Assembly: GCA_012959435.1 (NCBI GenBank)
Contig: DUDF01000113.1
Span: 3,730 to 67,729, forward strand
Length of the DNA stretch: 64,000 nt
From: Candidatus Poseidoniales archaeon
GTDB taxonomy: Archaea > Thermoplasmatota > Poseidoniia > Poseidoniales > Thalassarchaeaceae
Direction: 5' to 3'
Below are positions 15,901-42,760 of the stretch, piece after piece (the stretch's first letter is position 1; every line of letters starts with the position of its first letter). Made by a program: the position numbers and the translations under genes. Under the pieces are notes generated by a model. That model did no database searches. It was not told the DNA's origin and saw only the letters and a program-made list of their open reading frames with translations.

Positions 15901-18900
15901 CAAAATCACGGTCCCAGTCACTGTAAATGCGGTAACTTGTCAAACGATTATTTGAATTTAAATCAAAGTGGCAAGCGACAACTCTGATTACACCAGTGGC
16001 ATCAGTTTCCATATCAACGCCGCAAATATCACCTGCTGTTGTTGCGGTATACACCGGTTCAACCGTTGAATCATGAATGATTGCCAATGTCATTCGCTCT
16101 ACTCCAGGGCCGCCATCAAAGGCTATCCAAGGAACCCCATCTCCGGTACTCCCTGCGCTAAACAAATCGCTCGAAAAATAACCAATTGACAAATCCACAC
16201 AATTCGCTGTACTAATGGTACATAATTTTGCATCGGAAGTTTGGGTTTGTTCGGTAAACAACACCATGTTTTGATTCATAATATGTGCCGTGATATCATA
16301 TGTTGGAGTCAATGACGTCATCATCAATGATGTGATGTTGCTACCATTTACTGACAATACTTCCCCCATACCGGAATTATTTACAAGGGCAACCTGCAAG
16401 GTACCATCACTTAGGCAAGCAACATCATTGTCACCTTGATATCCCCAAATTGAGAAGGTAGTAACACTTCCATTCGCATCTATGTAATTTAGGATTGTTT
16501 GGTTTGTAGTTACAACAGAACTAACTAATACACCTGTGCCATTATCAAGTTGACAACCAGAACTAGCGCCATATTCTTCAGAACCGTTTGAATTTGTACC
16601 ACTAATATTCCAACTATTACCTAAACTCGGTAATTGATGAGTTAGCGAGAATGCACTTGAAATTCCAGCACCAAGGGAACTATTGGTTACTACTGTAGAA
16701 GTCAAGAAGCCAGAATCTGTTTCCGCCCTCAATTCAACATCCGATACCGTGGCATTTTGGTAAGATGTTGTGTAAATTAAACTCTGCTCGTTATCAATAA
16801 CCAAATCAATATCCATTCGATTGTGTGTCGCAAGAGGGTGCTGCGTTGTCAGAATCGTGTGAGCTGCTTGCTCAACAAAATTATTGCTGTCATCAAGTAC
16901 AATCGTCTTTCCAGACCTAGTTACAACCATTGATGAAATCGCGGAATAGGATATTCCTTGCCATTCCTCAGCAGCATTTGTAATCGCATTTGGCCGTTCT
17001 AAATGGCGTGTTTGATTTAGTATACCTGATTTCACAAATAAGTGAAACCTGCCAGAATCATCCAAATAAAGATCAACAACATCAATGGGAGCGCCCGCCA
17101 TCACCATCGGAATATCAGAATATTCATTATTTCGCTTTTCAATTTGAATTACAGCACCTGCGGAGTTACCATCCATGTCCTTGTCAAGAGAGGTGACGAT
17201 AATCTCAAACTGGCCATCACCATCTACATCACCTCCACCATATATTGTGCGGCCAAGATGTTGCCCACTCACTCCTTCAATGAGAATTGAGTTTACCCCT
17301 TTCCGCAATAATTGTGTATTGTCAGCGAAGAAGTACTCAACTTTCCCAGCACCTACGCTGTTAATTCCAATTGATGAAATCGCGATTTCAGAAAGGCCGT
17401 CATCGTTAATGTCACCAATTGTTGACATTGCACTTCCAAATGCTTGGCTTGATTCCGTACCAATCAACTCGAGTGCTGGATTGTCAGGTAGTCCATTTGC
17501 TGAACCGCGTAGAACTGTAACTTTTCCTAAAGCCAAATTGTCGTACAGAGGTTCGCTATATGCAAAATCGTCATAACCATCTTGATTGACATCACCAATC
17601 CCAAGAACGGAATAGCCGAGCAGTGTGTTGGTTGTTGTCGTTGTCCAGTAATTATCAATTGACATCGCCCCTGCTTGTGATCCTGTGTATACCTCAACCC
17701 TACCATTACCCGTAAGGTCTGAAAACGAACCTGCAGCACCCAAAGCAATATCATCAAAACCATCACCATTGATGTCGCCTATTCCAGCCATAGACCAGCC
17801 TTGAATTACATTCTGCCAATATCCACGAGTATACCAATCGTAATCTATACTCGGCCCAGTTGCTGAACCTAAATACAGGTAGACTTTACCATCACCACCT
17901 GTTTGACCTGATTGTGTGAAACCAGTGGCAGCAACTAAAATATCGGCGTAACTATCGTTATTGACATCTCCAGCTGATGAAACGGTACCACCGAATTTAT
18001 CTCCACCTCCTTCACCTGAGACAGACCAATTTGCAGCCGAATAAGTACGATTACCACCGTAGAATATGTAAGAAACTCCCGTTGCAAATCCCAAACTGTT
18101 AGTTGCGCCGGTTGCCCCTATTAGAAGGTCAGAACATCCATCACCATTGACATCCCCTGCATTTGCCATTGCTGAACCAAATCTATCTCCGCCAGCACTT
18201 CCGGTCAGATTGTAATCTGGAGTAGATGAAAGGCCCATTCCTGTACCCCAAAAGATGCCAACAGCACCCGTTTCAGAATTTGCAGCCGGCCTGCTGACAA
18301 TTAAATCATCAATACCATCACAATCAAAGTCAAGGTCATTGATAGCTTGAGTTGCATACTCATCACTCACGGCACCGGTTGTCAAAGTGTCAATTGAAGG
18401 TGAAAGGCGGCCATTCTCTTGCCCTGTCAAGTCACGTACAACGGTTAACTCTGTAGAATTTGAAGAACCGTAAACATACTGAATATTTCCTGTTGATGGA
18501 TCCTTAGCAAACGACATGGCTGGCCCAATACCTTGGCCTGCAGTTAAAGTTGTGAGCGTCCAATTACCATCTGTACCTAAAATTCCATGAATCATTTGTG
18601 TCGTGTCTAAATTTTGATAGAATATATTCAGCGAATCATCAGCGTCAAGGTATGCGTCGTATTGGGCACCAACCCTTGTACCTACTAACAATTCTTGATG
18701 AGTCCACCAAGTACCGTATGAGGACAAATGAAGTCCATTGTTGGAATCTAGCCAAAGCACATTTTCAGCACCATCTGAGTCAAGTAAGAGGGTGATTTTT
18801 GAGACTTGAGTCGCATTTTCAATAGTCCTCATGTTCCAGAGTCCACTTGCTCTCTGATATGCCACCCTAAGGAATCCAGACTCATTTGTGTAAGCAATAT

Positions 18901-19366
18901 GCAATAGTTCTCGCTCATCAACAATGATTGAGCATTTCTTCCCAAGTTCTACGCCTCCAGCATCAATCTGAGTAAGACTAGTAGCGCCACCAAATTCGAG
19001 TGTGGCAATCCACACACCCCCTATATCCTGGTGTAAACACCCTCTAGCCCTACCTCTATCATCTCTTGAAAGTTCTATTTCATCAAAAGTGAGGGATGTG
19101 TTGAGAGTAGTTGTTTGCCAAATATCCATTCCCCGAGTAGAATCAACTATCCAATCTGTTGCGTTGAGAATCATGGTTTGACCAGCAAATTGTTCACCAC
19201 TGCCATTTGAAAACGAAGTGCTGGGAGAAACCACTTGATTTTGCTCAAGAATTGTTTCATCACTTGGTGAAATTGAGAGTATTGGAGTCACTACTGAAAC
19301 TAACAATAAAAGTATCAAGGCTGAAGGTAAGAACAACTCTCTGCTTGCTGCTCGTTCGGCCCCCAT
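12992..19366 (-). CDS. Giant surface protein: integrin-alpha-like FG-GAP propeller repeats plus long array of thrombospondin type-3 Ca-binding repeats, TM helix, ~270-aa cytoplasmic tail
   Basis: 2124 aa. Signal peptide. FG-GAP motifs (GDVNGDGCSDLLIGA, GDVNNDSYADILVAA, GDINGDGFDDIALGA, GDVNQDGYDDFAY, GDVDGDGQFEIIV). More than 20 DxDxDGxxDxxD TSP3 repeats (DTDGDGWSDP, DLDNDGWGDN...). TM IGIGVGALLVLVIISLFVIRLI. Acidic then Gly/Pro/Arg-rich tail. Confidence 0.88.
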   Translation of the reverse strand: MGAERAASRELFLPSALILLLLVSVVTPILSISPSDETILEQNQVVSPSTSFSNGSGEQFAGQTMILNATDWIVDSTRGMDIWQTTTLNTSLTFDEIELSRDDRGRARGCLHQDIGGVWIATLEFGGATSLTQIDAGGVELGKKCSIIVDERELLHIAYTNESGFLRVAYQRASGLWNMRTIENATQVSKITLLLDSDGAENVLWLDSNNGLHLSSYGTWWTHQELLVGTRVGAQYDAYLDADDSLNIFYQNLDTTQMIHGILGTDGNWTLTTLTAGQGIGPAMSFAKDPSTGNIQYVYGSSNSTELTVVRDLTGQENGRLSPSIDTLTTGAVSDEYATQAINDLDFDCDGIDDLIVSRPAANSETGAVGIFWGTGMGLSSTPDYNLTGSAGGDRFGSAMANAGDVNGDGCSDLLIGATGATNSLGFATGVSYIFYGGNRTYSAANWSVSGEGGGDKFGGTVSSAGDVNNDSYADILVAATGFTQSGQTGGDGKVYLYLGSATGPSIDYDWYTRGYWQNVIQGWSMAGIGDINGDGFDDIALGAAGSFSDLTGNGRVEVYTGSQAGAMSIDNYWTTTTTNTLLGYSVLGIGDVNQDGYDDFAYSEPLYDNLALGKVTVLRGSANGLPDNPALELIGTESSQAFGSAMSTIGDINDDGLSEIAISSIGINSVGAGKVEYFFADNTQLLRKGVNSILIEGVSGQHLGRTIYGGGDVDGDGQFEIIVTSLDKDMDGNSAGAVIQIEKRNNEYSDIPMVMAGAPIDVVDLYLDDSGRFHLFVKSGILNQTRHLERPNAITNAAEEWQGISYSAISSMVVTRSGKTIVLDDSNNFVEQAAHTILTTQHPLATHNRMDIDLVIDNEQSLIYTTSYQNATVSDVELRAETDSGFLTSTVVTNSSLGAGISSAFSLTHQLPSLGNSWNISGTNSNGSEEYGASSGCQLDNGTGVLVSSVVTTNQTILNYIDANGSVTTFSIWGYQGDNDVACLSDGTLQVALVNNSGMGEVLSVNGSNITSLMMTSLTPTYDITAHIMNQNMVLFTEQTQTSDAKLCTISTANCVDLSIGYFSSDLFSAGSTGDGVPWIAFDGGPGVERMTLAIIHDSTVEPVYTATTAGDICGVDMETDATGVIRVVACHFDLNSNNRLTSYRIYSDWDRDFVPDPWDEVPFVGGQWNDADADGYGDNPGGPTADQCINSGTDLLDRGSRWGYFGCSDQDLDGWADAVDICQNTRGDSWVDRKGCEDSDGDGWSTDADQNPVNWYQQRDTDGDGHYDNHGSDCCGGSSSDIYPLNGNQWEDLDNDGWGDNHNFQYANETLRLFNGHDTDGDGDPDWFNIDWTGDQCPEFQGFSASDRGGCLDTDGDGWSDPHISQNAQESTWVYNRSQCNAIDSDGRNGCADNWPGGNGNSGEACGSIANCSQQWHDKDGDNYGDNTTPNAWRQDAFNEDPSQWNDTDLDGFGDNPTGTTPDSCPVNWGNSSVDRFGCQDEDGDGWSNPDSSESAHPNGNADSNSSNADQWRDTDGDGFGDFTNRINGDFCPEQFGYSNGDGGRGCPLPGEDSDADGIIDDDDVCGNTTTGEVVDTSGQWLGCSENQKDDDGDGVSNSLDRCANTTALAEVDVNGCSQDQLTLDTDVDGVPDIEDECPNTDTLQIDEYFDNVTGCARNQLDEDNDGVSNALDECSGTTDGAVVDEVGCPRNDIDTDGDGFFDDVDDFPIEPTQWLDLDFDGFGNELSGFQGDSCTNVAGNSTGSPNGDRWGCPDTDGDGWSDPVAGWGVDEGGDAFINDPTQWKDNDGDGFGDNITGFEGDECPLSAGVKDGVQGVGCPATTGADGNVVDECTKWEDFYNPTLSPGMIVPDEYQSCDWYNEWYGSSESSTLPLKMIGIGVGALLVLVIISLFVIRLIRGGDEWDEDDDDVYDEFEEDDDDIFASQSQGGWNAPAARQKFSGLEDNQPSRGGPAGQAGPPSRAGGGAPSRRPRGGGGPSRPGGSSGPPGRAGGSPPSNAPRAKKTRRAVVSDDAPPANAPSRKVRKVTGAPTPENVKTRSTRKTQGGNKAEPGNTQKKQPKAPSKWEDLFTPIDSANYEKSLGEARASIGSGESERNILRQLQTGGWNAKQSRYIVNEAGLN

Positions 19367-28688: not shown

Positions 28689-31600
28689 TCAATCAAGTTC
28701 TACCATAGATGGTATATCATCATTTGATATTACTTCGGCATCTACTTCTTCCGTGAAATCAAGCGGTTCTTCATCTCCTACTGGGCCTGCAGAATCATCT
28801 TCTTCATCAAATTCTGAATCTTCATCATCACCAAATCCACCGACACCCCATGATTCAATCATTTGCAAATCAGCAGCAAGGCGGCGTTTACGGGAAAAGG
28901 TGTAGAACACGCCGCCACCAACAGCCAATCCAAGAAGACCAAGGATGATAGCAACTGTACTATCCATGATGACATCAAAGAATGATGATTGCTGCGAAGC
29001 ACCTTCAACCCTGATGGTAGATGACAGACGGTTTGAAAGGTGCGGCTCTTCTTCCGGTCCATCACGGCAAATTACCTCAATGTTCACCCATCCATCACGA
29101 CCTGGTGTCATCTTCACCTGTCCTGTCCACGTACTGTCAATAGCAACACCATCTGGTTCTACACCATCATCGGAAAGTGAAAATTCGATCTCAATTCCAC
29201 CCTGGGATGCCCAGCCAACACATTCCCAAGTAGTCATATCTGCATCAAGTACGAAAGCCCGCGTAGTAATTATCGATTCAACGCCAACAGTCAATGTGCC
29301 CGGCTCTACTAACAAATCATCCAATACCGGCCATGAATCTTCAACAGTAATGTTAGCGAAAGCCCAAGTTGAAGCACCTCTACTATCTTTCACCTGAAGT
29401 GAAATTAGATGTATTCCCGGCGCCAAAGTCTGATTGGCCATCTCTGTCTCATTCAACAATACAGCAGATGCACCTTGGCCAAGGTACCAACGATAGAGAA
29501 TTATATCTTCATCGGCATCCCATGATTCGTTCGCATTTAGCAAAATGTTTGCACCGGGTGAAATTGTTTCTCCCTCTTGAGGTGAGGAAATAATAGCCAT
29601 CGGCGGAGATGCGAGAACCTTCAAAGAGCGTGTCTCATTTCTACTCATTCCAGTTTCATCTGTAACAGTGAAAGTTAGTATGTGGTCACCCGATGGAACG
29701 TACCTTGAGTACCAGAAATTTGGATTTACAGCATCAAGTACTGGCTCGGAAAGCAAGTTAGAAGTAACTGAAAAAGTAAAGTTATCACCATCAGGATCCC
29801 ATGATTGTTGAGGGTCAAAAAGTACCACTTCATTGCTGATAACTTCAATTCCATCGTCTGGCGAGGAAAGCACTAGAATCGGGGCACTGGTAGATACTTC
29901 AATGGTCATAGAATCGGTTACAGGAGAATTTACCCCATCTGAAACGGTGAGAGTTACTACATTGGTCCCACTGGGTAAACGAGCCTCTACCTGCCAATCA
30001 CCACCGAATGGGTCACTCAGTAAGTCGCTAGTCCATTCCGGAGTTACTGTATCAGGCATCGAAGGAGTACCGGGGTTACACAACCACCCTGTTGACATTT
30101 CAGGGAAGGCTTCAGCGCATGGTGCATCCCAATCACCTGAGCCAAATGCTGAGAAAAGAACAAGGTCGGCTGATTCAATGCTATCGCTCGGCGTCGGTAA
30201 TTCTATGTGGGCTAGAGGAGGAGAATTGAGGACCTCCACCTCAACTTCGAATGGTGTTGACCACTGATTGATATGGTATGAATCATCATCTGAAAGCCGT
30301 AATTGAATGGTGTGGGTACCCTGGCTGAGATGTCCTGTCCACATAAGGGGGGTTGACATTGAGGTATTCAAGTCACCATCAAGGTCAGAATTCCACCATG
30401 CAAAAACCATATCCCCTTCAGGGTCAAACGATGTTGAGCCGTCGAGTATGACGACTGACTGGGAGAGATTGGAGTCACGGCTAACAATGAACGAAGGGTG
30501 GGGGTACTCATTCTGAACCTCCACTGAGAGGTTGTAGTAAATCGTCGGGTTAAGGCCGTCAGAGAAAACTATCGTGTAGGTGAACTCCCTGCCGGGTGCT
30601 AGCTCAAACGTCCTATTCCATTCAAGCGGGTAAGTCGCTGAAACTTGAATTCCTGCCTGCTCATAATCAGTCCACTCACCTGTCTGAATCAAGTCACCCT
30701 CTGCGTCAGTGGTATCGCTAGCGTTAACATGCAGATTTTCAGTGTAGTTGAGGCGTAATACCCCATCCCAGTCTAAAGGAGGGGTTGTCGTTAAGATGAC
30801 CGAGGGTGGCAGATTAACGAACTCGATTGTTCGTGTCTCGTAAGCACAATTTCCTTGGTCGTCACACACTTCTAGAGTGATTTGGTGAATTCCATCAGTA
30901 AGCGTACAGTTCGTGTACCCACTACCCCCTTGGCCTTGACCAGCATTCGGCCCATTGACCAACAAGTCTCCAGGCACACCCCCGCTGCCGCCATTACAGA
31001 AGAAACTGGTATCGCCATCAATATCACTCGCCCATTGGAAAGTTATTGGGTCGTTGTCCAAATCCCAAGAGTTGCTGGCATTGAACCAGATTTCCGCGCC
31101 TGAACTAGTCACTGTCCCGTTGAGCGGTTCATCCCAGATAATTAGCGGTGGCTGATTGACAAGAGTAATTGTACACAAGTGCATCATCAAATCTTGATTT
31201 AGTGCATCTGGACCAGTTGTTCCCTGAGTATTATCATACCAACATTCTGTGGAAAAATCAGTCACCGCAGATGCGCCTGTTAGTGTATGTCTTTGTCCAA
31301 CAAAAGGTCCAAGAATTTTGTTACCTCCGTAAGGTACTGCAGTAGAGAAATCACTCTCAAACTGTGAAAATGATGTGTTTACAATCGCATATGGCAAACC
31401 ATGACCAAACTGATTTACAATCCACAAATCAACAAACCACATTTCATCGAAGGTCACACTGGGTGCCAATGTTGGAATTGTCACTTGACTTGAAATTGCA
31501 CGAACATAACTCTGCCCAGTAATTGAAAATGGCACACTACCTTGAATGTAATCTGTTAGATTTAGATCGCTTCCTGAAATTGATACGCTACCAGTACATC

Positions 31601-33584
31601 CCGAAACATCCAAGCCCCAAGTGTCCAGTTTAGGAAGATTTGAAATTGATAAACAATTATTTCCAGTCAGCGTACTGTTACCTAACTTTGAATCAAGAGT
31701 TCTCCCAGTCCATTGTATCCCAGAGTGGACCCCATACAGATTGATTCCCTCTAGTCTTGCATCAGTGTCATCAAGCAAAATGGCTGGGGCTGTAGCTGAT
31801 AGATTCACATAGATTTCAGCACCATCAATATCAACCCAGCCATTCCAATTCATGTTTGAATCGTCGATGACTATCGCTGACTGTCCTTGAACTACATTAG
31901 GGTCATGCACTTCCAAATCAACAAATTGGATATCAACTGAATCCTCAACCCTTACAGCCCCCCAATTATCATCAATTGATGTACACTGAGAACACTGCAC
32001 ATTGGTTCCAGCAAACATACCATACTGATTACTTTCAACAAAAACCATTCCTGCTCCATTCTGAGCACTAGGGGCCGAATATCCATTGTGGCGGGATTCA
32101 AAATTTTGCAAATCTAATCGATTTGAGTTACTAACACGCAACCCAGAATAGCCGTTATTTTGAGATAAAACGTCCGAAACCGAGGGGAATGCATCCTGAA
32201 TAAGTAATCCTTCGTTACCGTTATTTTGAGTGGTCCACCCTGAACCACTAACATCCCCCTTAGATACAAAAATACCAACACCAGGTGATTCAGAAACGGT
32301 TAGATTTTGTATTGATGGGCCACCATTATTACTACTCCGCATGAAGAATCCTGCACGCTCATTTGTACCTCCTATGAGTGCACCTGAATTCCTAATTGTG
32401 GTGTTAATAAAACTCGTAGATGGATCAGTCATGTACATTTTCACACCATTGATTGTATTGTCGTGGATATTCACATCTTCAAACCAACCACCACTAGTAT
32501 TGAGGAAAACAGTACCATATGCCAAGCCAGGTGATGATGCATTGGGCCCACCTGTTCCAAACACTTCCAAATTATGGAAACGCCCCATCATGTAGGTTGA
32601 ATAGTTGAAACGGTCCGATTTAGTCATCATTACTGCTGAATATTGTGAATCCCCCACTACTACATCTCTGAATACAGGACGGGTAATCAGGGTATCAGTC
32701 GCATGAAGAACATAAATCCCATTATCACATTTTGAAATGATGACATCTTCAATCAGCGGCAAAGAGTCTTCAACAAATATTGCAGCTGAAATATTCATTG
32801 TCGCTCCACCAACATTAGTGATGTTTACACCGCGAATGACGCCACCACTATTGCCCCAATATGAAATTGCACGAGTGATTTGATTAGTGAAATTAACATC
32901 TTCAATAAATGGTGCTGAACTAGCGCCGATGGAGAGGCCAATTCCATAGCGCCAATTGGTCATGCTTCCATGCACATCTTGACCACCTCCAGCGAAGGTG
33001 GTTCGACGAATTACAGGATTCGCCCAATCAAACAAATCAATTGCAACTAAATCCACATTGTTGAATAAAGAGTCTTCAATAACTGGATCACTGTTGTATA
33101 TCGTAATGCCAAATTGTGCGTCATTGATGGTGACATTTCGGAGAGATGAGCCTCTATTACGACTAGTTGAATTGAATTGAAAACCATTGTGCCAAGTAAA
33201 TCCTGATTGAACTCCTACTATAATCGGGTCAACCGCAGTACCATCTGCTACAATTTTACCCTCAACATAAATTCTGACCCCTGGGCCCAATTGTAGGATT
33301 GTACCAGCATATATTCGTAATTCATCACCAGCAGCAACAGTGAAATCATTGTTGATATCCATTGTGCCTGACCAAATTATTAGTGCCTTTGAAGAAGTGG
33401 GCAACGAATCATCATTAGAGTCTAATTGAGAATTTTCAACAACGGAAAAAACAGATACAAGCGAGGAGAGCGTCATCATCAGAGTGAAGATAATCGCAGT
33501 TCTCACACCCCTGACCATACTAATACCACGCCACGCACACCATGTTTGATGATTCCCCTCTTCTGTATCGGTCATGAATCCCAA
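28689..33584 (-). CDS. Giant adhesin-like surface protein with right-handed beta-helix (PbH1) repeats and PKD/Ig-like domains, C-terminal TM and acidic tail
   Basis: 1631 aa. Probable true start at the internal Met (about 33518, MVRGVRTAIIFTLMM signal). NVTINDAQFGITIYNSDPVIEDSLFNNVDLVAIDL-type repeats. TM VAIILGLLGLAVGGGVFYTF. Tail SRKRR...WGVGGFGDDEDSEFDEEDD. Confidence 0.82.
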   Translation of the reverse strand: MGFMTDTEEGNHQTWCAWRGISMVRGVRTAIIFTLMMTLSSLVSVFSVVENSQLDSNDDSLPTSSKALIIWSGTMDINNDFTVAAGDELRIYAGTILQLGPGVRIYVEGKIVADGTAVDPIIVGVQSGFTWHNGFQFNSTSRNRGSSLRNVTINDAQFGITIYNSDPVIEDSLFNNVDLVAIDLFDWANPVIRRTTFAGGGQDVHGSMTNWRYGIGLSIGASSAPFIEDVNFTNQITRAISYWGNSGGVIRGVNITNVGGATMNISAAIFVEDSLPLIEDVIISKCDNGIYVLHATDTLITRPVFRDVVVGDSQYSAVMMTKSDRFNYSTYMMGRFHNLEVFGTGGPNASSPGLAYGTVFLNTSGGWFEDVNIHDNTINGVKMYMTDPSTSFINTTIRNSGALIGGTNERAGFFMRSSNNGGPSIQNLTVSESPGVGIFVSKGDVSGSGWTTQNNGNEGLLIQDAFPSVSDVLSQNNGYSGLRVSNSNRLDLQNFESRHNGYSAPSAQNGAGMVFVESNQYGMFAGTNVQCSQCTSIDDNWGAVRVEDSVDIQFVDLEVHDPNVVQGQSAIVIDDSNMNWNGWVDIDGAEIYVNLSATAPAILLDDTDARLEGINLYGVHSGIQWTGRTLDSKLGNSTLTGNNCLSISNLPKLDTWGLDVSGCTGSVSISGSDLNLTDYIQGSVPFSITGQSYVRAISSQVTIPTLAPSVTFDEMWFVDLWIVNQFGHGLPYAIVNTSFSQFESDFSTAVPYGGNKILGPFVGQRHTLTGASAVTDFSTECWYDNTQGTTGPDALNQDLMMHLCTITLVNQPPLIIWDEPLNGTVTSSGAEIWFNASNSWDLDNDPITFQWASDIDGDTSFFCNGGSGGVPGDLLVNGPNAGQGQGGSGYTNCTLTDGIHQITLEVCDDQGNCAYETRTIEFVNLPPSVILTTTPPLDWDGVLRLNYTENLHVNASDTTDAEGDLIQTGEWTDYEQAGIQVSATYPLEWNRTFELAPGREFTYTIVFSDGLNPTIYYNLSVEVQNEYPHPSFIVSRDSNLSQSVVILDGSTSFDPEGDMVFAWWNSDLDGDLNTSMSTPLMWTGHLSQGTHTIQLRLSDDDSYHINQWSTPFEVEVEVLNSPPLAHIELPTPSDSIESADLVLFSAFGSGDWDAPCAEAFPEMSTGWLCNPGTPSMPDTVTPEWTSDLLSDPFGGDWQVEARLPSGTNVVTLTVSDGVNSPVTDSMTIEVSTSAPILVLSSPDDGIEVISNEVVLFDPQQSWDPDGDNFTFSVTSNLLSEPVLDAVNPNFWYSRYVPSGDHILTFTVTDETGMSRNETRSLKVLASPPMAIISSPQEGETISPGANILLNANESWDADEDIILYRWYLGQGASAVLLNETEMANQTLAPGIHLISLQVKDSRGASTWAFANITVEDSWPVLDDLLVEPGTLTVGVESIITTRAFVLDADMTTWECVGWASQGGIEIEFSLSDDGVEPDGVAIDSTWTGQVKMTPGRDGWVNIEVICRDGPEEEPHLSNRLSSTIRVEGASQQSSFFDVIMDSTVAIILGLLGLAVGGGVFYTFSRKRRLAADLQMIESWGVGGFGDDEDSEFDEEDDSAGPVGDEEPLDFTEEVDAEVISNDDIPSMVELD

Positions 33585-33671: not shown

Positions 33672-34181
33672 CTAATCTACTTCAACTACTGTGAAAGGAA
33701 TTCCACGTTCCTCTACCATCTCAATAACAACTCGAGTCCACTTACTTGTAGGTGAAGGAAAAGCGATGACATGGGTTGCTGCATCAAGCAAACGATGTGT
33801 TAGAGATGTGGGTGCTTCGTGACGACCTGAATCCTCCAATCCCTTTCTTGGCACACCCCATTCTTCATTGAACACTGCATGTGGAACATTGTTATTCTCA
33901 GCCCATCGTTCACCTAGATAATCTACCCCACTCGCGCCACCTGTGATTACTAAATCCGGGTGTGCTTCCTTCTGGGTCCATTTTTCAATCGCTTCTTCCA
34001 CTACAGAGAAATCATAAAATCTGCTTGAACCTACTATTACGAGATTAATTATTCTGCCATCTTCGTTCAAATCCTTGCCACCGAGGCGGCCAAGGACATC
34101 GCGCCCCGATTCTCCCATCATATTGACAGATAGAGGCATGAGGAAATAAACCCATGCATATATCAAGGTGATTCTGGACAA
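33672..34181 (-). CDS. DUF2493/SLOG-family protein
   Basis: About 150 aa if started at MMGESG (about 34121). LVITGGASGVDYLGERWA...EWGVPRKGLEDSGRHEAPTSLTHRLLDAATHVIAF matches the DUF2493 pattern (GGAxGaD...dW...G..AG..RN). Confidence 0.6.
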   Translation of the reverse strand: MSRITLIYAWVYFLMPLSVNMMGESGRDVLGRLGGKDLNEDGRIINLVIVGSSRFYDFSVVEEAIEKWTQKEAHPDLVITGGASGVDYLGERWAENNNVPHAVFNEEWGVPRKGLEDSGRHEAPTSLTHRLLDAATHVIAFPSPTSKWTRVVIEMVEERGIPFTVVEVD

Positions 34182-34250: not shown

Positions 34251-34484
34251 ATGGAGACGGCTTTCATCCTTCTAAAAACTGAGCCGGCTCGTGAAAGAGA
34301 AGTTTATTCAGCCCTCGTTGATGTTCCTCAAGTGGTTGAAACTCACGCCCTCTATGGAGAATATGATTTACTTGCAATTGTGAAATGTGAGACCTCAAAA
34401 AAATTGACATCTATTCTTATGAAACAATTACGCCAAATTGAAGGTGTACGTGAAACTGAAACCCTAATTGCAGTGGATTATTGA
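34251..34484 (+). CDS. Stand-alone Lrp/AsnC C-terminal (RAM) ligand-binding domain protein
   Basis: 77 aa. AFILLKTEP...YSALVDVPQVVETHALYGEYDLLAIVK...EGVRETETLIAV, a classic RAM fold with no HTH. Confidence 0.72.
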   Translation: METAFILLKTEPAREREVYSALVDVPQVVETHALYGEYDLLAIVKCETSKKLTSILMKQLRQIEGVRETETLIAVDY

Positions 34485-34493
34485 GGTGATAAG

Positions 34494-34727
34494 ATGGCTG
34501 TAGGATTTGTTCTAATTGTGACAAAAGCAGGGTTTGAGCGAAATGTTCGCTCATCCCTTGACAGTATCAAACTCGTCACTGGGCGCTGGGGCGTCTTTGG
34601 TGAATTTGACATCATCACCAAAGTTGAAGCGGAAGATGATGCGGCTCTTACCCGCTGTATTGTAGAAGAAATTAGAACCATTGAGGGAATTACCGAAACT
34701 CGCACCCTCATTGGTGCAGAAATCTAA
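34494..34727 (+). CDS. Stand-alone Lrp/AsnC RAM domain protein (paralog of upstream gene)
   Basis: 77 aa. GFVLIVTKAGFERNV...VTGRWGVFGEFDIITKVEAED...EGITETRTLI. Confidence 0.72.
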   Translation: MAVGFVLIVTKAGFERNVRSSLDSIKLVTGRWGVFGEFDIITKVEAEDDAALTRCIVEEIRTIEGITETRTLIGAEI

Positions 34728-36505
34728 GAATCATGCAAATGGCTATGGATTCTTTGCGCTAATTCCTTTCCAATTCCTGGGACTTGGCGGAGATCAAGCA
34801 CGCTAGCATGGTCTATCCCTTTTCGTCCCCCAAAATTCCTTAGAAGGGCCTGCAATTTTTTTGCGCCTAACCCTTCAACCTCTTCTAATGGGTCAAGTAA
34901 AGCGGTTTTCCCTCTTCTTTTCCTGTGAAACTTATTGACAAAACGGTGAGCCTCATCACGAGCATAGACCAGTAACCTACCCCGCTTATCCAGTACTATT
35001 GGAGAATGGCCATTGCGGTACAATGTCTCTTCTTTTTTAGCTAGAGCAGCAAGTGGGATACGCTCTTTCAAACCATGTTTTTCAAGTAGGTCAGAAATTG
35101 TTGAAAGATGAGTTTCACCCCCGTCAATTAATAGCAAGTCAGGCCATTCTTCTTGCCGTTTCAACCACCTCTCAACTACCTCCCTCATCATTCTGAGGTC
35201 ATCGAATACTTCACCTCTAACACGGTATGTCCGGTATTCCTTTTTATCCGGTCTACCACCACGCAGTGTCACACATGCACCTACTTTTTCCGACCCTTGA
35301 AGTTGCGCCATATCAAAGCAAACTACAGTATCCAATGATTCCATCCCTAGATACTCTGCTGCTTCCACTGCCGAGCGATTTTCAAGATTTCCAGCAGCTC
35401 GTTTGTCAACGACTCTTTGAGCCTGCATCTCTGCATTTTGGTCGGCTAATGCCCTGAGAATTGCCAACTCACCACGGTGTGGAACTCTGACTTCAACTGC
35501 ACCATTCCGACGCTCTTTCAGCCATTCATCTAGTTGCTGTCCGATAGGTGTAGGCGTGAGAATTTTGGCTGGTGGACGACGCGAATGATAGTGTTCTGAT
35601 AATATGAGACTGATGGATTCTGAAATATCCCCTCTGTGCAAGAGTGGATAATGGGTTTTCCCTGTGACTACTCCTTGTTTTGCATGCAGAAACACTACGG
35701 CACCAATATCGCCACGACTGCCAAAACCGATGGCATCTACATCTTGATAAAACCTGCTAGAAACCACTTTTTGTGAAAGGGTTCGCTGTACTGAAGCAAT
35801 TAAATCACGACTTCTTGCCGCCTCTTCAAATTGCATTTGTTCACTTGCCAAATCCATTTCTTCTTGCAATGTGGCTAGAAGTAATTCAGCATTTCCTTCC
35901 ATCACTTGAGTAACAGCCTCAACTTGTTGGCCATAACCTGTTGCATCAATACAGGGTGCGGAACACAATCCAATGTGCATTGCCAAACAACCCTGTGGAA
36001 GCAGACTAGGACAATCTCTGACTCCGAATTGGCGCCTTAATAGTTGGATAACTCGTTTAGCAGCTCCTGCATCGGGAAATGGCCCCCACAGCCTCGCATT
36101 TTCAGGCGGATGGCGTGTGTATATGATTCGGGGGACATCTTCATCTGTGATAGCGATGAATGGATATGACTTATCATCTGTCATCAATGAATTGTATTTT
36201 GGTTTGTGGCTACGAATTAGTTCACGCTCTAGAGTTAACGCTTCGCGCGGATTTGGGGTCACAATGCAATCAACATGGTCTGCCTCTCCAACCATTTTCG
36301 GAATCATATTGCGGTCAGGATTATTTGAAAAATAAGATTTAACCCGTTCTTTCAAAACGGTTGCTTTACCAACATATAGAACCCTTCCATCGTCACGCTT
36401 GAAGAGGTATACACCCGGCTTTGAGGGCAGATGCAACTTCGATGCATCCACTGACATAAGACAAACGGAGAAGGTGAAGGGAAAAGAACCCACGCCTCGC
36501 CTCAC
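34724..36505 (-). CDS. uvrC: Excinuclease ABC subunit C
   Basis: GIY-YIG N-terminus (GVYLFKRDDGRVLYVGKATVLKERVKSYF). UvrC RNase-H-like and HhH regions (RDEAHRFVNKFHRKRR...LGAKKLQALL). Probable true start at the internal Met (about 36457). Confidence 0.88.
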   Translation of the reverse strand: MRRGVGSFPFTFSVCLMSVDASKLHLPSKPGVYLFKRDDGRVLYVGKATVLKERVKSYFSNNPDRNMIPKMVGEADHVDCIVTPNPREALTLERELIRSHKPKYNSLMTDDKSYPFIAITDEDVPRIIYTRHPPENARLWGPFPDAGAAKRVIQLLRRQFGVRDCPSLLPQGCLAMHIGLCSAPCIDATGYGQQVEAVTQVMEGNAELLLATLQEEMDLASEQMQFEEAARSRDLIASVQRTLSQKVVSSRFYQDVDAIGFGSRGDIGAVVFLHAKQGVVTGKTHYPLLHRGDISESISLILSEHYHSRRPPAKILTPTPIGQQLDEWLKERRNGAVEVRVPHRGELAILRALADQNAEMQAQRVVDKRAAGNLENRSAVEAAEYLGMESLDTVVCFDMAQLQGSEKVGACVTLRGGRPDKKEYRTYRVRGEVFDDLRMMREVVERWLKRQEEWPDLLLIDGGETHLSTISDLLEKHGLKERIPLAALAKKEETLYRNGHSPIVLDKRGRLLVYARDEAHRFVNKFHRKRRGKTALLDPLEEVEGLGAKKLQALLRNFGGRKGIDHASVLDLRQVPGIGKELAQRIHSHLHDS

Positions 36506-36510
36506 ACTAC

Positions 36511-38703
36511 ATGCTCAGCGAGGCGCAGACCAGACTTCTGCGACTTCTGTCCACCTTCCCTGACACATTGGAGGATGCTTGGGATGTGCCTCGTGAACTC
36601 TCTCTTCCCGGTTTAGCAGACCGTTTAGGAGTTGTACGCTCAGCACTAAACCCACCTATTTCTTCACTTGAGAAAGATGAACTCGTGCACACTCGGAAAG
36701 CCCATGTGATAGGCGGCGGGCATCGGAAACGAACAGTTATTCACATTACTGAAAAGGGCCGAAACATTGCTGCAGGATTTGAACCAGAAGATAAGATTGA
36801 GACAGGCGGAGAAATTCAGGGGGAAATGCCAGCACTCACACATATTCACGGTAGAGAAGAATTGCTTCTTGAAGTTATGAATGAACTAGAAAACGGTGCT
36901 ACAATACAAGTTGTAGGACTTCCAGGAATAGGTAAAACCTCACTGCTAAGAGTATTAGCGGAAAATGCACTTTCTGAAGGATGGAATGTAAATTGGATTA
37001 CTGTACAATCCTTCCATGATGTAGGGAAATTATCGTCAGACCTATTGGCCCTAGGAGATGGGCCTAAGGACATTGAAGCAGCGCTTTCAGGCGTGCTTGA
37101 TATCGCTGAGAAAACATTGTTTGTAATTGATGAATTACAGGCAGTGCATGAGCGTCACAAAGCCGAAGTTATGGCATTAGTAGAGGCGTTGGCAGAGAGT
37201 AATGACATTACCATCGCTATCGGTTGTCGGGCACCTTCACCGATCGAAACTGGAACTGTTTTCAAAATAGATGAAATCTCAGAAGATGATGCTAGAAAGT
37301 TACTTCCTGAAGGATTGGAAGATTCTATTTTCCAACAAGTGATTAGTGGTTTAGGGGGCCACCCTTTAGCACTGAAACTTTGGCAACCAGGTCATTCTCT
37401 CCCGCAGGCAGATGACCGAATTCAAGAATTTATTCGTACTGATGTTGTGGAAAAACTACCTATTGAAGAAATTACAACTTTAGATGAATTGGCTGCCTCT
37501 CCATTACCCGTTTTAGCCGACCAAATGTCCAATGATGAGGGGGTTGAACCTCTAGACGAGGCTGCATTGTTGCGCTGGAGTGGAGAAGAACTTGAACTTC
37601 AACACCTAGTTAGGAATGTTCGTCGCACCATGTGGAGTGATGATGAAGCAAGGGAAATTCACTCTTTAGCAGCAACATACTGGGCTCAAAGAATTGAACC
37701 AGAAGCAAGAATACATGAGGCTCACCACAGAGTTCAAGCAGCAAATTCAGAATCTTCTGATGAAGTTTCTAACTCTCTTGAGGATGGTATTCAAGATATG
37801 TTGACAATTGATTCCGCTGCAGCGGCTGCAATAATTTCAGATGCTATCCGAATCCTTCCTGATGCCCATCGTTTACGCCTACTATCTGCCAAAGTTGCAA
37901 TCGAGCGGGGTGAAGGTGAACTCGCAGAAAAGGAGTTGAGCCAATGCGATAAAGACCTACAAAAAGAGATGCAATGGCGGTTGCTTAGCGCCCGTACCAA
38001 GAGATTACGGGGGGAATTCGATGAAGCAAACAAAGAAGAGAATTTAGTTCTCGAAGAAGCAGACCCAACTCTAGCTTCAAAAATCAGACTCAATCGTTTA
38101 ATCCTTGGACTAGAAGATAGACTACCAGGTAAAACCGAAGAAAAAACCCGTGATGCTGTTGAAAAAGGGATTTCAGAAGTTGACCTCTCGGCTTTGACTG
38201 CGAACAATCGCAAAGCGGCTTTAGTCACGATTGCTGCTATCCGCCACTCATTAGCCTTAGAAGCAGGAAACCCTGAAGTGGCAGCAAAAATACGCACTGA
38301 TTTGGCGACTACTGCTAGCCCTAATGACCCTGTAATTGAGGAAATGTCTGCCCGCGCAGCCTTGGTCTTTGGAAGCGACCCAACTCGTGTCAGGAGTCTT
38401 ATTTCAAGAACCAGTAACCCACTCAGAAGATGTGCACTTGGGCTTCTCTTGGTCAACCATGCCCACCAACAAAATAACTCAGATATTGCTGAAATTTTGG
38501 CCACCGTTGAACACCCCCCTGATATGGGTACGACCACCGCTAGACGTCTATCAGCACAACACTGGTATTGGCGGGGTCTAATTGATTCAAGGCAACGAGT
38601 GAAATGCTGGCAAGAAGCATTGCATCGTTTTGGTATGGCTGAATGTGCGAATGCTTACATCCAGTTACAACACAAACTGCATGATGCTATTCGTCTCATC
38701 TGA
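36511..38703 (+). CDS. wHTH / P-loop NTPase (AAA_16/STAND-like) / C-terminal helical-repeat protein
   Basis: 730 aa. N-terminal wHTH. Walker A VGLPGIGKTSLL. Walker B LFVIDELQ. About 400-aa alpha-helical repeat tail. Divergent from uvrC. Confidence 0.7.
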   Translation: MLSEAQTRLLRLLSTFPDTLEDAWDVPRELSLPGLADRLGVVRSALNPPISSLEKDELVHTRKAHVIGGGHRKRTVIHITEKGRNIAAGFEPEDKIETGGEIQGEMPALTHIHGREELLLEVMNELENGATIQVVGLPGIGKTSLLRVLAENALSEGWNVNWITVQSFHDVGKLSSDLLALGDGPKDIEAALSGVLDIAEKTLFVIDELQAVHERHKAEVMALVEALAESNDITIAIGCRAPSPIETGTVFKIDEISEDDARKLLPEGLEDSIFQQVISGLGGHPLALKLWQPGHSLPQADDRIQEFIRTDVVEKLPIEEITTLDELAASPLPVLADQMSNDEGVEPLDEAALLRWSGEELELQHLVRNVRRTMWSDDEAREIHSLAATYWAQRIEPEARIHEAHHRVQAANSESSDEVSNSLEDGIQDMLTIDSAAAAAIISDAIRILPDAHRLRLLSAKVAIERGEGELAEKELSQCDKDLQKEMQWRLLSARTKRLRGEFDEANKEENLVLEEADPTLASKIRLNRLILGLEDRLPGKTEEKTRDAVEKGISEVDLSALTANNRKAALVTIAAIRHSLALEAGNPEVAAKIRTDLATTASPNDPVIEEMSARAALVFGSDPTRVRSLISRTSNPLRRCALGLLLVNHAHQQNNSDIAEILATVEHPPDMGTTTARRLSAQHWYWRGLIDSRQRVKCWQEALHRFGMAECANAYIQLQHKLHDAIRLI

Positions 38704-38722: not shown

Positions 38723-41700
38723 TCACCAGTTGTCATCATCTAAATCAATGCCAGCCGACCAATCAATATCAGCACCACTCCCTGAGCCACCGCCTCCACC
38801 AACTGCACCCATTGGTGAAAGTCCTAACAACTCTCTCTCAACCTCATGAGTATTTGACTTAACTGACCGCACCTGAATTAGTTTCTCTTCTTTCGCTGCA
38901 CTCTTTTTCTTCTTACGCTTTGAGCGCAGGTAAAACAGTAAGAAAACAACTACTAGAAGGCCAATCAAATATGATAATAATTCTTGAATTAAAAAGCCGT
39001 AGCCAATTGTGAATTGGAAGCTGATTTCATCGCTTTGGTCAAATTCACAATTGTTGCTATCTTCACCAATGCAAAGTGGAATACGATACAAAATGTGCTG
39101 ACGATTACCATCAACGGTATCCTGCTCATCTCTCCCTAATGATGAGGTGAATTCCAACTCTAAACCTGTTGGCATGGTTAACTCAATAACCACTGCAGGT
39201 CGAATATCTAAATCTTGATCATTGTTTGGGTTTCCATCCATATCAGAGTCTGTTCCACTATCAATGTCCTCCACCATGAATATTGGCGGTACATTTTCAA
39301 TTATGGGCTCAGGCGGCAATGTAACCACACCATCAGATCCCTTTGCATCTCTAATATCAAATACATCTAACATTCCATTCATTAATGATGGAATTGCACC
39401 CTGGGCAGAGGCTGTGCTGACAGTAATTGCACCATCAAGATATTTTGCTCTGATAATGGTTCTATCCAATTGTAGCGTGAACTTAATTGGTTTATCGTCA
39501 TTGATGATTCCGTTATACGGCCTCTCCATTCTATCAACTGAAGCCGAAAAGTGAAGACTGGAAAGGTCAACACTCAATTGTTCATCAGATTGTTGTACGC
39601 TAGATATTTCATTATTTATCATATCAGCAAGCGAATTTGCAAATGCTTGTAAACCATCATTTGAAAGTTCAAGTTGGTGTGTTTCAGTTCCTAAGGGGAC
39701 TTCAATTGTTTTACCAACTAAGCCGTTGAGACCACCCTCCTGCTCATCACCATATGCAACTATATGGCGGATTAAATCTGATGGAATTGTTTTGATATCT
39801 ACACCAACATCTTCAATCAAAACTTGCGGGACTTCAATCCTATACAACTCAATTGATATCTGTCCCTCCACCACCAATTCAATTTCTTGACTCCACTCAT
39901 GTATCTCAAATTCCGGGAGATTGAACGCGGCATGAATTTGGATACATGAACGCCAATCAGATTTGCAAATCAAATCGGGGCTTGAGTCACTACATACTGC
40001 TGAAACATCACAAATCGGATTACTCCAACGACGATGATACGGATTAGGTCCCGTTATCGCCAAGGGAGCTCCCTCACCGCTTTCACTTGAAGCCATGAGA
40101 GTGATTGAATGTGGGTCACCTACATCAGAAGCAATCCAATCAGGCAGTAATACTCTGACCTCGATTTCGGTTGGTGGTAACCAATCTGGAAGGCTCTCAG
40201 AAATGAAAGAAGTGTCTAACTGATGCTGATAAACAAGCACAGAAAGTAATGCCGAGACATCTTTTTGGGGTATTGAAGTGACATTTTCTAGTCCTGCCTT
40301 ACCTGAAATAAGACTAGTCAACTTCTCTAAAGGGTCAGCCGAAAATGGTTTGCTTGAAGTGATCATGGTGACTGGGAAAGACCCATCCATCGCACTACCC
40401 CCACTCAGACAATGGGTGACTGGCACCAATTCAGCACAAGTAACACTAGGCGTATGGGTGAAGTTCAACCCTCCAGAAGCATCTGGTTGTTTCCAAGTCA
40501 CAGGGTTCATGACAATTTCTGTTTCAGAGGCGCTCAAAACTGCTGACTCAATATCCCTCAATGGAATCATATCAGAAAAGTCGTCTAAATCAAGTAACCC
40601 ATATTCATGGGCCATTCGGATTCCATCACTAGTAATCCAAGGCAATTCGATATTACCATTTCCAAGAGAAAATCCCCAATCATCTAATACTGATTCAGGT
40701 AGATAATGGATATCCATTTCAGCGCTAATACTGCTACGTGTTTCATCTCTAAGATCAACTTCTGCATATATTGAAATCCCATGGTCAACATTCGGGTCAA
40801 TAAATACTGAATTGGTTGTACCATTACGATATATGCTGGTGATTGAAGCGTTTGTCAGAGTATTTCCATCACCTTGGATACTAAATCCATCGGTAACCCA
40901 TGAGCCTGAATTGTATTGCACGCTCCCTTGCTGATGAGGTACCAAATTACCACCTCCGCCAACTGATGAGAGTGTAGCATAATTTGGTGGGATTAACTCA
41001 AATGTTGAGCGGTGGCCTGCTCTTGAAACTAAAGTGAAATTTGAGGTTACAGCCGCACCCATTGTAAGCAATCCTTGAAACGCCCTCTCCACATCAAGTT
41101 CTGAATCTGTAACTCCTAGAATATCTGAGCCAACTTGGATTTGTGCTACCGAACGTAAGCACAAAGGTGGATAGAATGCATTATTGGGTAATCCTAGAAC
41201 TTCGTCTATTGAATCTTCATTCATATCGTCAGTACATTGGATATTCTGACCTTCAATGGTCACCTGATTGACGATTTGGCTCTCTACTTCAGCAGAGCCG
41301 TCGTAGGTATCGTTCACCAAACCTTCTACAGCGGCTGAAAACTCATTGAGAATGAGTTGTCGCACCTGTAAACCTGAGTTAGTAGTATAACCGAGATAAT
41401 TACGAATGTAATCTACAGGTGCACCGCTGTTATTTCCATCAAAACCGCCCCCTAAATCCATATCTTGAAGACCAATCACTGAACGATTAAATTCGTGCAT
41501 TTCCCATTCAAGAGTCAAAGTAATAGTTGTTGTATTGTGCATCTCAAACTGATAATGAGAACGCACCCATTCACTGGACTGAGTCAAATCATGAGCAAAA
41601 TTGTAATCATCACAAATCCCTGTCCCATTACTCCAAGTTCCACAATAAGTGTTGGTTACATCAGGGGTGCCAGGAGGAGGGTCGGCAAGAACAGGAAGTG

Positions 41701-41779
41701 ATGAGAGCAATGGGACGATTAAAAGGGCGAATATCGCCTGTTTTCGGGAATTGCTAATCGACTTCACGGACCCCAACAC
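38723..41779 (-). CDS. Large secreted surface protein, C-terminal TM, Gly-rich acidic tail ending DDDNW
   Basis: 1018 aa. Signal peptide. TM LIGLLVVVFLLFYL plus RSKRKKKK. Tail GGGGGSGSGADIDWSAGIDLDDDNW. Confidence 0.7.
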   Translation of the reverse strand: MLGSVKSISNSRKQAIFALLIVPLLSSLPVLADPPPGTPDVTNTYCGTWSNGTGICDDYNFAHDLTQSSEWVRSHYQFEMHNTTTITLTLEWEMHEFNRSVIGLQDMDLGGGFDGNNSGAPVDYIRNYLGYTTNSGLQVRQLILNEFSAAVEGLVNDTYDGSAEVESQIVNQVTIEGQNIQCTDDMNEDSIDEVLGLPNNAFYPPLCLRSVAQIQVGSDILGVTDSELDVERAFQGLLTMGAAVTSNFTLVSRAGHRSTFELIPPNYATLSSVGGGGNLVPHQQGSVQYNSGSWVTDGFSIQGDGNTLTNASITSIYRNGTTNSVFIDPNVDHGISIYAEVDLRDETRSSISAEMDIHYLPESVLDDWGFSLGNGNIELPWITSDGIRMAHEYGLLDLDDFSDMIPLRDIESAVLSASETEIVMNPVTWKQPDASGGLNFTHTPSVTCAELVPVTHCLSGGSAMDGSFPVTMITSSKPFSADPLEKLTSLISGKAGLENVTSIPQKDVSALLSVLVYQHQLDTSFISESLPDWLPPTEIEVRVLLPDWIASDVGDPHSITLMASSESGEGAPLAITGPNPYHRRWSNPICDVSAVCSDSSPDLICKSDWRSCIQIHAAFNLPEFEIHEWSQEIELVVEGQISIELYRIEVPQVLIEDVGVDIKTIPSDLIRHIVAYGDEQEGGLNGLVGKTIEVPLGTETHQLELSNDGLQAFANSLADMINNEISSVQQSDEQLSVDLSSLHFSASVDRMERPYNGIINDDKPIKFTLQLDRTIIRAKYLDGAITVSTASAQGAIPSLMNGMLDVFDIRDAKGSDGVVTLPPEPIIENVPPIFMVEDIDSGTDSDMDGNPNNDQDLDIRPAVVIELTMPTGLELEFTSSLGRDEQDTVDGNRQHILYRIPLCIGEDSNNCEFDQSDEISFQFTIGYGFLIQELLSYLIGLLVVVFLLFYLRSKRKKKKSAAKEEKLIQVRSVKSNTHEVERELLGLSPMGAVGGGGGSGSGADIDWSAGIDLDDDNW

Positions 41780-41863: not shown

Positions 41864-42760
41864 GTGTCAATGCGTGACAAAAAACAAACACCTCATTCCA
41901 AATTGCTGGATAGTTTAGGTGATTTCCTCGGAGAAAAAGGACGGGGAGGGGAACTACTCGAATCAGCGCCGTCAAAATGGGAAAAACATGGTGACCTTAT
42001 CTTACTTCCAACTGACTCTTTTAGTGGTTGGGATAACTTAGCAGGGACGGAACTATGGGAATTAGTTGCCAACTCACTAGGTGGAAAAAGACTAGGAATA
42101 AAAGGTGAGATATCTGGTTCTGAGCGCAGACCTGATGTAGAATTGCTATTGGGTAAAGAAGGATGGGTGACCCACAAGGAGTACGGGATTGAATATTCAT
42201 TTGATGTCAGAAAATCAATGTTTTCAGCAGGTAATTTGCCTGAAAGAGGTAGATTGGGTGAACTTGATTGTAAAGGTGAAATCATTCTAGATTTGTATGC
42301 TGGAATTGGATACTACACATTGCCGTTGTTAGCACGCGCTGAAGCGGCGCATGTACACGCCTGTGAATGGTCAGAAGATGCGGTTTTTGCTCTGAATCAT
42401 AATCTAATAGCAAATGGTGTTAGTGATAACTGTACAATTCATGCTGGTGACAATCAAGTTTCATTGAACACCGGCGGTAGTGCAGCAGCCGTAATTGGTA
42501 CATGTGACCGTGTAATTCTCGGCCTACTACCATCGTCAGAAAATGGTTGGAATCTAGCTCTTTCAGCTCTCAAACAAGAAGGTGGGATCCTACATCTTCA
42601 TGGAAATGCACAAGGTGGAAATGAAATTGAATGGGCTGAAGGAGTCGCATCCGATTTGGGAAATATGAGTGGCCGTAAAGCCACCGTGCAACATCTAGTC
42701 AAAGTAAAGTGGTACGCACCACATATACGCCATTGTGTTGCTGATATCAAAATCAGTTGA
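41864..42760 (+). CDS. Trm5/Taw2-family (Met-10+ like) SAM-dependent tRNA modification enzyme
   Basis: 298 aa. ILDLYAGIGYYTLPLL (motif I). ACEWSEDAVFALNHNLIANGV. GDN. Gap between motifs typical of Trm5/TYW2. Confidence 0.6.
   Translation: MSMRDKKQTPHSKLLDSLGDFLGEKGRGGELLESAPSKWEKHGDLILLPTDSFSGWDNLAGTELWELVANSLGGKRLGIKGEISGSERRPDVELLLGKEGWVTHKEYGIEYSFDVRKSMFSAGNLPERGRLGELDCKGEIILDLYAGIGYYTLPLLARAEAAHVHACEWSEDAVFALNHNLIANGVSDNCTIHAGDNQVSLNTGGSAAAVIGTCDRVILGLLPSSENGWNLALSALKQEGGILHLHGNAQGGNEIEWAEGVASDLGNMSGRKATVQHLVKVKWYAPHIRHCVADIKIS

Follow-up and report, generated by a model that had tools for sequence, protein, structure and literature searches.

The locus described here belongs to a Candidatus Poseidoniales (marine group II) archaeon (GCA_012959435.1, contig DUDF01000113.1), from which we analyzed a stretch of 64,000 nucleotides (nt) that we call the window. 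On its plus strand lies a gene, which we refer to as the STAND gene, for a protein of 730 amino acids (aa) with an N-terminal winged helix-turn-helix (wHTH), a nucleoside triphosphatase (NTPase) of the STAND type and a helical C-terminal half. Directly upstream, on the minus strand, is uvrC, and the two genes are arranged head to head as follows:

36511-38703, plus strand: wHTH-STAND-helical-sensor gene, 730 aa (open reading frame (ORF) and translation, homologues, AlphaFold2 model)
34724-36457, minus strand: uvrC, 577 aa, the conserved partner gene (Pfam UvrC domains)
36458-36510: spacer of 53 nt between the divergent uvrC and STAND gene starts (sequence)

The minus-strand gene was identified as UvrC by its Pfam domains (GIY-YIG, UVR, two RNase H-like, and HHH domains; UvrC_RNaseH_dom matched with E 1e-33). 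Because alignments of UvrC homologues begin at the Met at 36457 and not at the GTG at 36505, the spacer is 53 nt long, in agreement with the first-pass annotation of this DNA, which had read a 730-aa protein divergent from uvrC with a start about 50 nt away. Close relatives of the STAND protein are 739 aa long and start from an in-frame ATG 27 nt upstream of 36511. In the window this codon is AAG (36484-36486) and there is a TGA at 36475-36477, therefore 36511 is the first usable start of the STAND gene here. The relatives that use the upstream ATG include one that is 99% identical to the window protein. The start at 36511 has no Shine-Dalgarno (SD) sequence in front of it, and the AAG could alternatively be an assembly error.

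The STAND gene is real, since it has more than 500 full-length homologues at 35-99% identity. We examined its product with an AlphaFold2 model (mean predicted local distance difference test score 90.3, predicted template modelling score 0.81), searched the model against known folds with Foldseek, and scored invariance across 31 diverse homologues, down to 35% identity. Part of the domain assignment below comes from alignment to PH0952, a STAND protein of Pyrococcus horikoshii (PDB 6mfv):

36511-36780, plus strand: N-terminal wHTH, aa 1-90, presumed effector and DNA-binding domain (modelled secondary structure a-a-b-a-a-b-b-a)
36841-37305, plus strand: nucleotide-binding domain (NBD), aa 111-265 (invariant residues, profile alignment to PH0952)
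36916-36939, plus strand: Walker A
37117-37140, plus strand: Walker B
37222-37242, plus strand: sensor-1-like motif GCRAPSP
37306-37638, plus strand: helical domain (HD) and STAND winged-helix domain (WHD) (motif alignment to PH0952, invariant columns)
37354-37374, plus strand: GGHPLAL (GxP) motif
37597-37626, plus strand: LQHLVRNVRR, with His365
37639-38700, plus strand: arm and helical-repeat sensor, aa 377-730 (AlphaFold2 model, Foldseek alignment to PH0952)
38542-38655, plus strand: invariant C-terminal motif RRLxAxxWYWRG...WxE...R...AEC (invariant columns)

From these features we conclude that the NTPase is a genuine STAND module with a complete NBD-HD-WHD nucleotide switch. GLPGIGKT (aa 136-143) fits the Walker A consensus GxxxxGK[ST] and LFVIDE (aa 203-208, within LFVIDELQ, aa 203-210) fits the Walker B consensus hhhhD[DE], as the first-pass annotation had proposed for both. 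All 31 homologues share G136, G139, G141, K142, D207, and R240, as well as G283, H284, P285, L286, and A287 of GGHPLAL and H365, while E208 is at least 90% conserved. The sensor-1 Arg, R240 in GCRAPSP, aligns with the TTR of PH0952. When the family profile was compared with PDB profiles, it matched PH0952 with E 1.7e-12 across NBD, HD, and WHD, pairing GHPLAL with GHPLML and QHL with the VHD of PH0952. In the model the WHD spans aa 301-376, and His365 occupies the MHD/LHD-like position, from which we infer a contact with ADP.

The fold search gave the same answer. The model consists of the wHTH, a Rossmann-like NBD followed by the helical and winged-helix domains, and an all-helical region at aa 377-729 with about 19 helices. 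Its top Foldseek match is 6mfv (E 4e-14, 701 columns), and the next are Apaf-1, CED-4, SAMD9, plant NLRs, and Avs4. The STAND-like architecture of winged helix, P-loop, and helical repeats that had been read from the letters alone thus stands, with its motifs invariant and a STAND protein as best match in both sequence and fold. Of its details, the N-terminal winged helix (aa 1-90) and the helical C-terminal half hold, but the latter spans about 350 aa in the model (aa 377-729) and not the 400 first estimated.

Curated profiles are less decisive. In Pfam, nSTAND1 (26.6 against a cut-off of 27.1) and nSTAND6 (25.0 against 27.7) were missed narrowly and nSTAND3 also scored below its cut-off, as did AAA_16 (23.1 against 32.6) and NACHT (17.5 against 26.7). 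For the NTPase just two generic profiles passed, AAA and AAA_30; NCBIfam and PADLOC matched the protein at the P-loop level only, and the C-terminal sensor gave only a weak TPR_19 match. Because the curated profiles gave marginal matches only, STAND identity was decided by the family alignment. An ordinary Orc1/Cdc6 or other housekeeping AAA+ protein, the alternative raised in the first-pass annotation together with a classification by profile, was rejected. The PDB profile search has the STAND protein PH0952 as its best match. The Foldseek match to 2qby has E 1.6e-4, against 4e-14 for PH0952, and PDB profile matches to ORC1 (E 1.6e-3 to 2.6e-3) are centred on the P-loop. We found no Orc1/Cdc6-specific family in the Pfam matches, nor among the best 25 of 28 NCBIfam matches.

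The wHTH has the highest conservation of all domains (0.72 column conservation). Its recognition helix (GVVRSAL) is near-invariant across the homologues examined, and the wing (HVIGGGxRxR) contains invariant residues. It matches PDB profiles weakly, and all of the matches are regulators of the ArsR/MarR type: NolR (E 0.002), then MarR, SmtB, and SlyA. The Pfam MarR/HTH_34 matches were below cut-off. The conservation of this domain, and of its recognition helix and wing in particular, suggests that the STAND protein binds DNA.

The arrangement of wHTH, nucleotide-binding oligomerization domain (NOD), and sensor is already known from PH0952-like archaeal STAND proteins, and PH0952 itself is predicted to be a transcription factor and has an N-terminal wHTH that is ArsR-like (PMC6468293). 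The domain order is identical in both proteins: the wHTH comes first, followed by the NOD (NBD-HD-WHD), the arm, and a sensor of helical repeats (TPR). The best sequence-profile and fold matches suggest that the Poseidoniales protein may belong to this PH0952-like clade. The two are only ~14% identical, and the Poseidoniales sensor is not recognizably TPR by sequence. Unlike PH0952, it ends in a family-specific invariant motif rich in W, R, and C. The family occurs in Poseidoniales only, and the position of its gene is tied to uvrC and, in most loci, to two RAM-domain genes.

Several bacterial regulators are also similar. MalT, the E. coli activator, likewise combines a STAND switch, a TPR-like sensor, and a DNA-binding effector, and may share a mechanism in which the inducer lifts the autoinhibition that arm and sensor impose, ATP is bound, and repeated asymmetric sites are occupied by the oligomer. 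MalT, in contrast, has a C-terminal LuxR-type HTH; our profile search found no LuxR/GerE match at the C-terminus of the STAND protein, whose HTH is the N-terminal winged helix. AfsR/SARP-type and other bacterial regulators have an N-terminal wHTH, an NB-ARC-like NTPase, and TPRs, as in the STAND protein. In SARPs the wHTH is of the OmpR type and is joined by a BTAD domain, and Pfam detected neither in the STAND protein. Orc1-2 of Sulfolobus is an AAA+ and winged-helix regulator of the archaeal DNA-damage response, and here the likeness is functional only, an ATPase with a winged helix that possibly controls archaeal DNA-damage genes. Unlike the STAND protein, Orc1-2 is of the Orc1/Cdc6 AAA+ class with a C-terminal winged helix, and the fold match is E 1.6e-4 or worse.

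An exhaustive profile search returned about 40 clusters (50% identity) of full-length family members at E < 1e-97. Past this set, the next proteins that match beyond family fragments appear only at ~1e-39. At E ~1e-36 there are remote relatives, archaeal wHTH-NB-ARC-TPR proteins that pass the NB-ARC cut-off, and one of these, at L081 in our set of loci, does not adjoin uvrC. A relative is encoded in 352 of the genomes that represent species in GTDB, essentially all of them from Poseidoniales. Pairwise distances between STAND proteins track those between UvrC proteins (r = 0.92), with the STAND protein evolving ~1.5 times faster. The STAND gene is therefore a vertically inherited core gene and not a patchy defence gene. 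The two most divergent members, at L082 (P0155) and L083 (P0152), have the Walker A lysine replaced (GIGL and GIGR) and an altered wHTH wing, and may be degenerate, nucleotide-independent versions.

Our literature search found no paper describing this family. In a published marine group II (MGII) metagenome-assembled genome (MAG), the gene is labelled 'putative adenylyl-sulfate kinase', has no orthologous group, and lies between two RAM genes and uvrC. With no paper found and that label in the MAG, the first-pass view that such a protein is undescribed for this lineage appears correct. Current database labels for the family are 'AAA ATPase', 'MoxR-like', and 'CcmA-type ABC ATPase'.

The linkage to uvrC is strict. 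The STAND gene adjoins uvrC in 76 of 76 assessable loci, 74 of them divergent and two tandem, so the conserved adjacency that had been proposed as a check is kept across the whole order. In our 79 genome loci, uvrC is the divergent neighbor wherever upstream DNA is present, except at L040, and it is divergent also in L082 and L083. Both tandem loci are from Poseidoniaceae. At L040 (2260-2326) the gap between the genes is 63 nt, while at L080 (10146-10152) uvrC follows the STAND gene directly and in the same orientation, with the STAND stop and the uvrC start 1 nt apart (TGAcGTG). The tandem arrangement probably explains one 90%-identity protein cluster in which UvrC and STAND sequences are mixed. 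Around the pair, a beta-helix gene, a 1018-aa ORF, and TRM5 change places from locus to locus. At L080, the STAND-uvrC pair is preceded, at a distance of a few kb, by carotenoid genes (a phytoene desaturase-like amino oxidase and phytoene synthase, 1-2021).

We compared the spacer across 68 sequences, the window and 67 related loci. Its length is 50-56 nt in 59 of them and 91-94 nt in the remaining nine, and it contains one conserved element:

36471-36498, plus strand: conserved 28-nt block AAGGTGAAGGGAAAAGAACCCACGCCTC (alignment of 68 sequences)

The core of the block across the order is AGGT[GC]AA-N5-A[T/A]GAAC. In the clade of the window, the block (28 nt, -40 to -13) is 94% conserved, against 53-58% at third codon positions. 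In 67 of the 68 sequences, the distance from GGT[GC]AA to the conserved Met downstream is exactly 38 or 37 nt, whatever the spacer length class, while the distance from the block to the uvrC start varies (13-19 nt or 53-56 nt). The block is retained in L040, where uvrC is not upstream. Of the 67 loci, L074 (5945-6000) alone lacks the motif, and it alone has an altered wing, which reads GSPRRKK in place of GGGxRxR; this joint change hints that the protein recognizes the block. We saw no co-variation of GGTGAA/GGTCAA with recognition-helix residues; the helix is invariant.

Other candidate elements around the spacer were rejected. A general promoter motif is not a good description of the block, which occurs once in the window by pattern search and, in a position weight matrix scan of 971 kb, scored high at the STAND-uvrC site alone. 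The one inverted repeat pair nearby, CGCCTCGC and GCGAGGCG (36493-36500 and 36518-36525), flanks the start codon and is missing in other clades, e.g. L006. A TATA box for the STAND gene within the conserved PGVY codons of uvrC was discarded, as the third positions of the Val and Tyr codons vary freely. RNAalifold predicted zero pairs around the start in 37 diverse sequences, and Rfam had no match in the window.

Based on these observations, our tentative reading, to which we give slightly less than even credence, is that the STAND protein is a PH0952/MalT-like, ATP-gated predicted transcription factor, specific to Poseidoniales, that shares its control region with uvrC and possibly regulates it. 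Regulation of uvrC is plausible from synteny. By analogy with MalT, APAF1, and PH0952, the protein at rest would be a closed monomer that holds ADP and is clamped by its arm and sensor. A putative signal would bind the helical sensor, perhaps relayed by the two neighboring RAM-domain proteins, and would open the NOD, allowing exchange of ADP for ATP and oligomerization. The clustered wHTH domains could then bind DNA. Judging from position, the first target would be the compact divergent control region of the STAND gene itself and uvrC, and the regulator and uvrC would be controlled together, plausibly in response to light, ultraviolet (UV) radiation, or DNA damage.

A more far-reaching version, which we regard as unlikely, is that the protein is the master switch of the UV and DNA-damage response in marine group II, binding the block and turning on uvrC, itself, and perhaps other repair genes, with the RAM proteins maybe acting as co-sensors. 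If true, this would be the first damage-response regulator of the STAND family and the first repair regulon described for the Poseidoniales lineage.

Several observations weigh against control of uvrC by the STAND protein. Since there is no second copy of the block in 971 kb, no regulon can be defined. The spacer (36458-36510) contains no inverted repeat, so the shared palindromic operator that the first-pass annotation had expected there is absent and the conserved element is non-palindromic. The block resembles a normal ribosome-binding site (AGGTGA, 6 nt, ATG) of a form used by other genes in the window, and its ATG is a usable start in some relatives. In the part of the published MAG's expression table that we examined, the STAND gene was not found. 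That MGII metatranscriptome reports for dark bottles a log2 fold change of -3.5 for uvrC (adjusted p 0.10) and -2.9 for uvrA; most genes fell in these bottles too, so the dark-bottle expression is uninformative. In E. coli, the regulator gene uvrY stays linked to uvrC although its product is not known to regulate repair. Finally, an unrelated divergent pair next to the STAND gene is equally conserved across the same loci:

38723-41779, minus strand: 1018-aa ORF, no Pfam match
41864-42760, plus strand: TRM5/TYW2 methyltransferase gene, divergent

Conserved across Poseidoniales as tightly as uvrC and the STAND gene, this pair is a useful synteny control, and because of it synteny is weak evidence here.

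The role of the block is ambiguous because it also reads as a ribosome-binding site with the upstream ATG used by relatives. It could be a translation-initiation region, a shared bidirectional core promoter, or an (auto)operator, and these three readings may overlap. That it is a translation-initiation region only, made up of an SD sequence, an ancestral ATG, and the first codons (MNPRL...), is quite possible, although we would not call it probable; this concerns the element and not the protein. The AGGTGA lies 6 nt before the ATG, and the same SD form is found at other window genes, e.g. GAGGTGAAATAatg and GAGGTGATAAGatg. In 31 of the 68 sequences the ATG is in frame with no stop after it, and gene callers use it to predict 739-aa proteins, and the GGTCAA variants mostly follow GGA or GA, which restores a GGAGGT core. 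On the other hand, the block persists where the ATG cannot be the start, either out of frame (17/68), followed by an in-frame stop (ATG AAC TGA, 8/68), or replaced by AAG or ATT (10/68, the window included). Within the window's clade, the third positions of codons 2-5 (AAC CCA CGC CTC) are nearly invariant, compared with 53-58% conservation at other synonymous sites, and the spacer to uvrC is also held at 50-56 nt.

A second alternative accepts the STAND protein as a transcription factor and gives it targets unrelated to uvrC, with the adjacency frozen because a 53-nt head-to-head region is hard to separate. The conserved TRM5 and 1018-aa ORF pair and the uvrY precedent both fit this, as does the block, which keeps a fixed distance to the STAND start and a variable one to the uvrC start and is kept in L040 without uvrC upstream. 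We consider it somewhat unlikely, since the adjacency outlasts a change of orientation, becoming a tight tandem in L080 with 1 nt from stop to start, holds in the most divergent members, and is broken in no assessable locus. If the link to uvrC is only historical, the STAND protein would be an ordinary lineage-specific regulator.

Could the STAND protein instead act directly in nucleotide excision repair, as a DNA-binding, ATP-switched scaffold that recruits or licenses UvrC? Its strict co-inheritance and adjacency with uvrC, including the operon-like tandem form, and its predicted combination of a DNA-binding wHTH with a protein-binding helical-repeat domain would suit such a role. We think it improbable, because no STAND protein is known as a repair scaffold, a recognition helix and wing that are near-invariant speak for binding to a specific sequence, and among relatives that carry an HTH effector, the closest ones characterized or predicted are transcription factors (PMC6468293).

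The NLR-like defence sensor that had also been suggested, or an Avs-like anti-virus sensor in general, is very improbable: apart from the STAND fold and distant Foldseek matches to Avs4 and AVAST5 (E 6e-5 to 1.5e-4), the gene is a single conserved locus in 352 species genomes whose divergence tracks that of UvrC, its neighbors are housekeeping genes, its sole effector-like domain is an HTH, and PADLOC gave no meaningful match to any known defence family (best mad8, 5e-5 over 56 residues, at the P-loop level).

In the sunlit ocean, Poseidoniales rank among the most abundant archaea, but none has been cultured, and almost nothing is known of their gene regulation and UV response. A predicted signal-gated transcription factor that is core to the whole order and locked to uvrC offers a concrete, testable entry point to their regulation. 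Its control region is defined and 53 nt long, a block of 28 nt is conserved there, and two proteins are candidate partners. This result also corrects how databases annotate the family, and the PH0952-like STAND clade, so far little studied, would gain a large and well-sampled family.

The candidate partner proteins are encoded by two small tandem genes, too short for an 80-aa ORF filter, that carry the RAM (Lrp/AsnC ligand-binding) domain:

34251-34484, plus strand: stand-alone RAM protein 1, 77 aa (PF01037, 56.2 bits)
34494-34727, plus strand: stand-alone RAM protein 2, 77 aa, converging on uvrC, whose stop it overlaps (PF01037, 38.9 bits)

Both exceed the PF01037 cut-off of 25, and neither has an HTH domain. 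RAM genes are found near the uvrC-STAND pair in ~58 of 83 loci. In the window's clade they are directly downstream of uvrC, while L082, L083, and most other clades have them directly after the STAND gene, converging on it. Beyond the RAM genes in the window's clade, ~540 nt downstream of uvrC, is a gene for a 169-aa YspA-like SLOG protein (33672-34181, minus strand).

Farther away in the window, two adjacent genes on the minus strand (4148-6163 and 6160-8091) encode animal-type haem peroxidases (PF03098, E 8e-143 and 2e-119). This family is unusual for archaea, and the genes may have been acquired horizontally. Two other large genes are also on the minus strand, a 2124-aa ORF at 12992-19366 and, at 28689-33584, a gene for a probable surface protein of 1631 aa (beta-helix/PKD).

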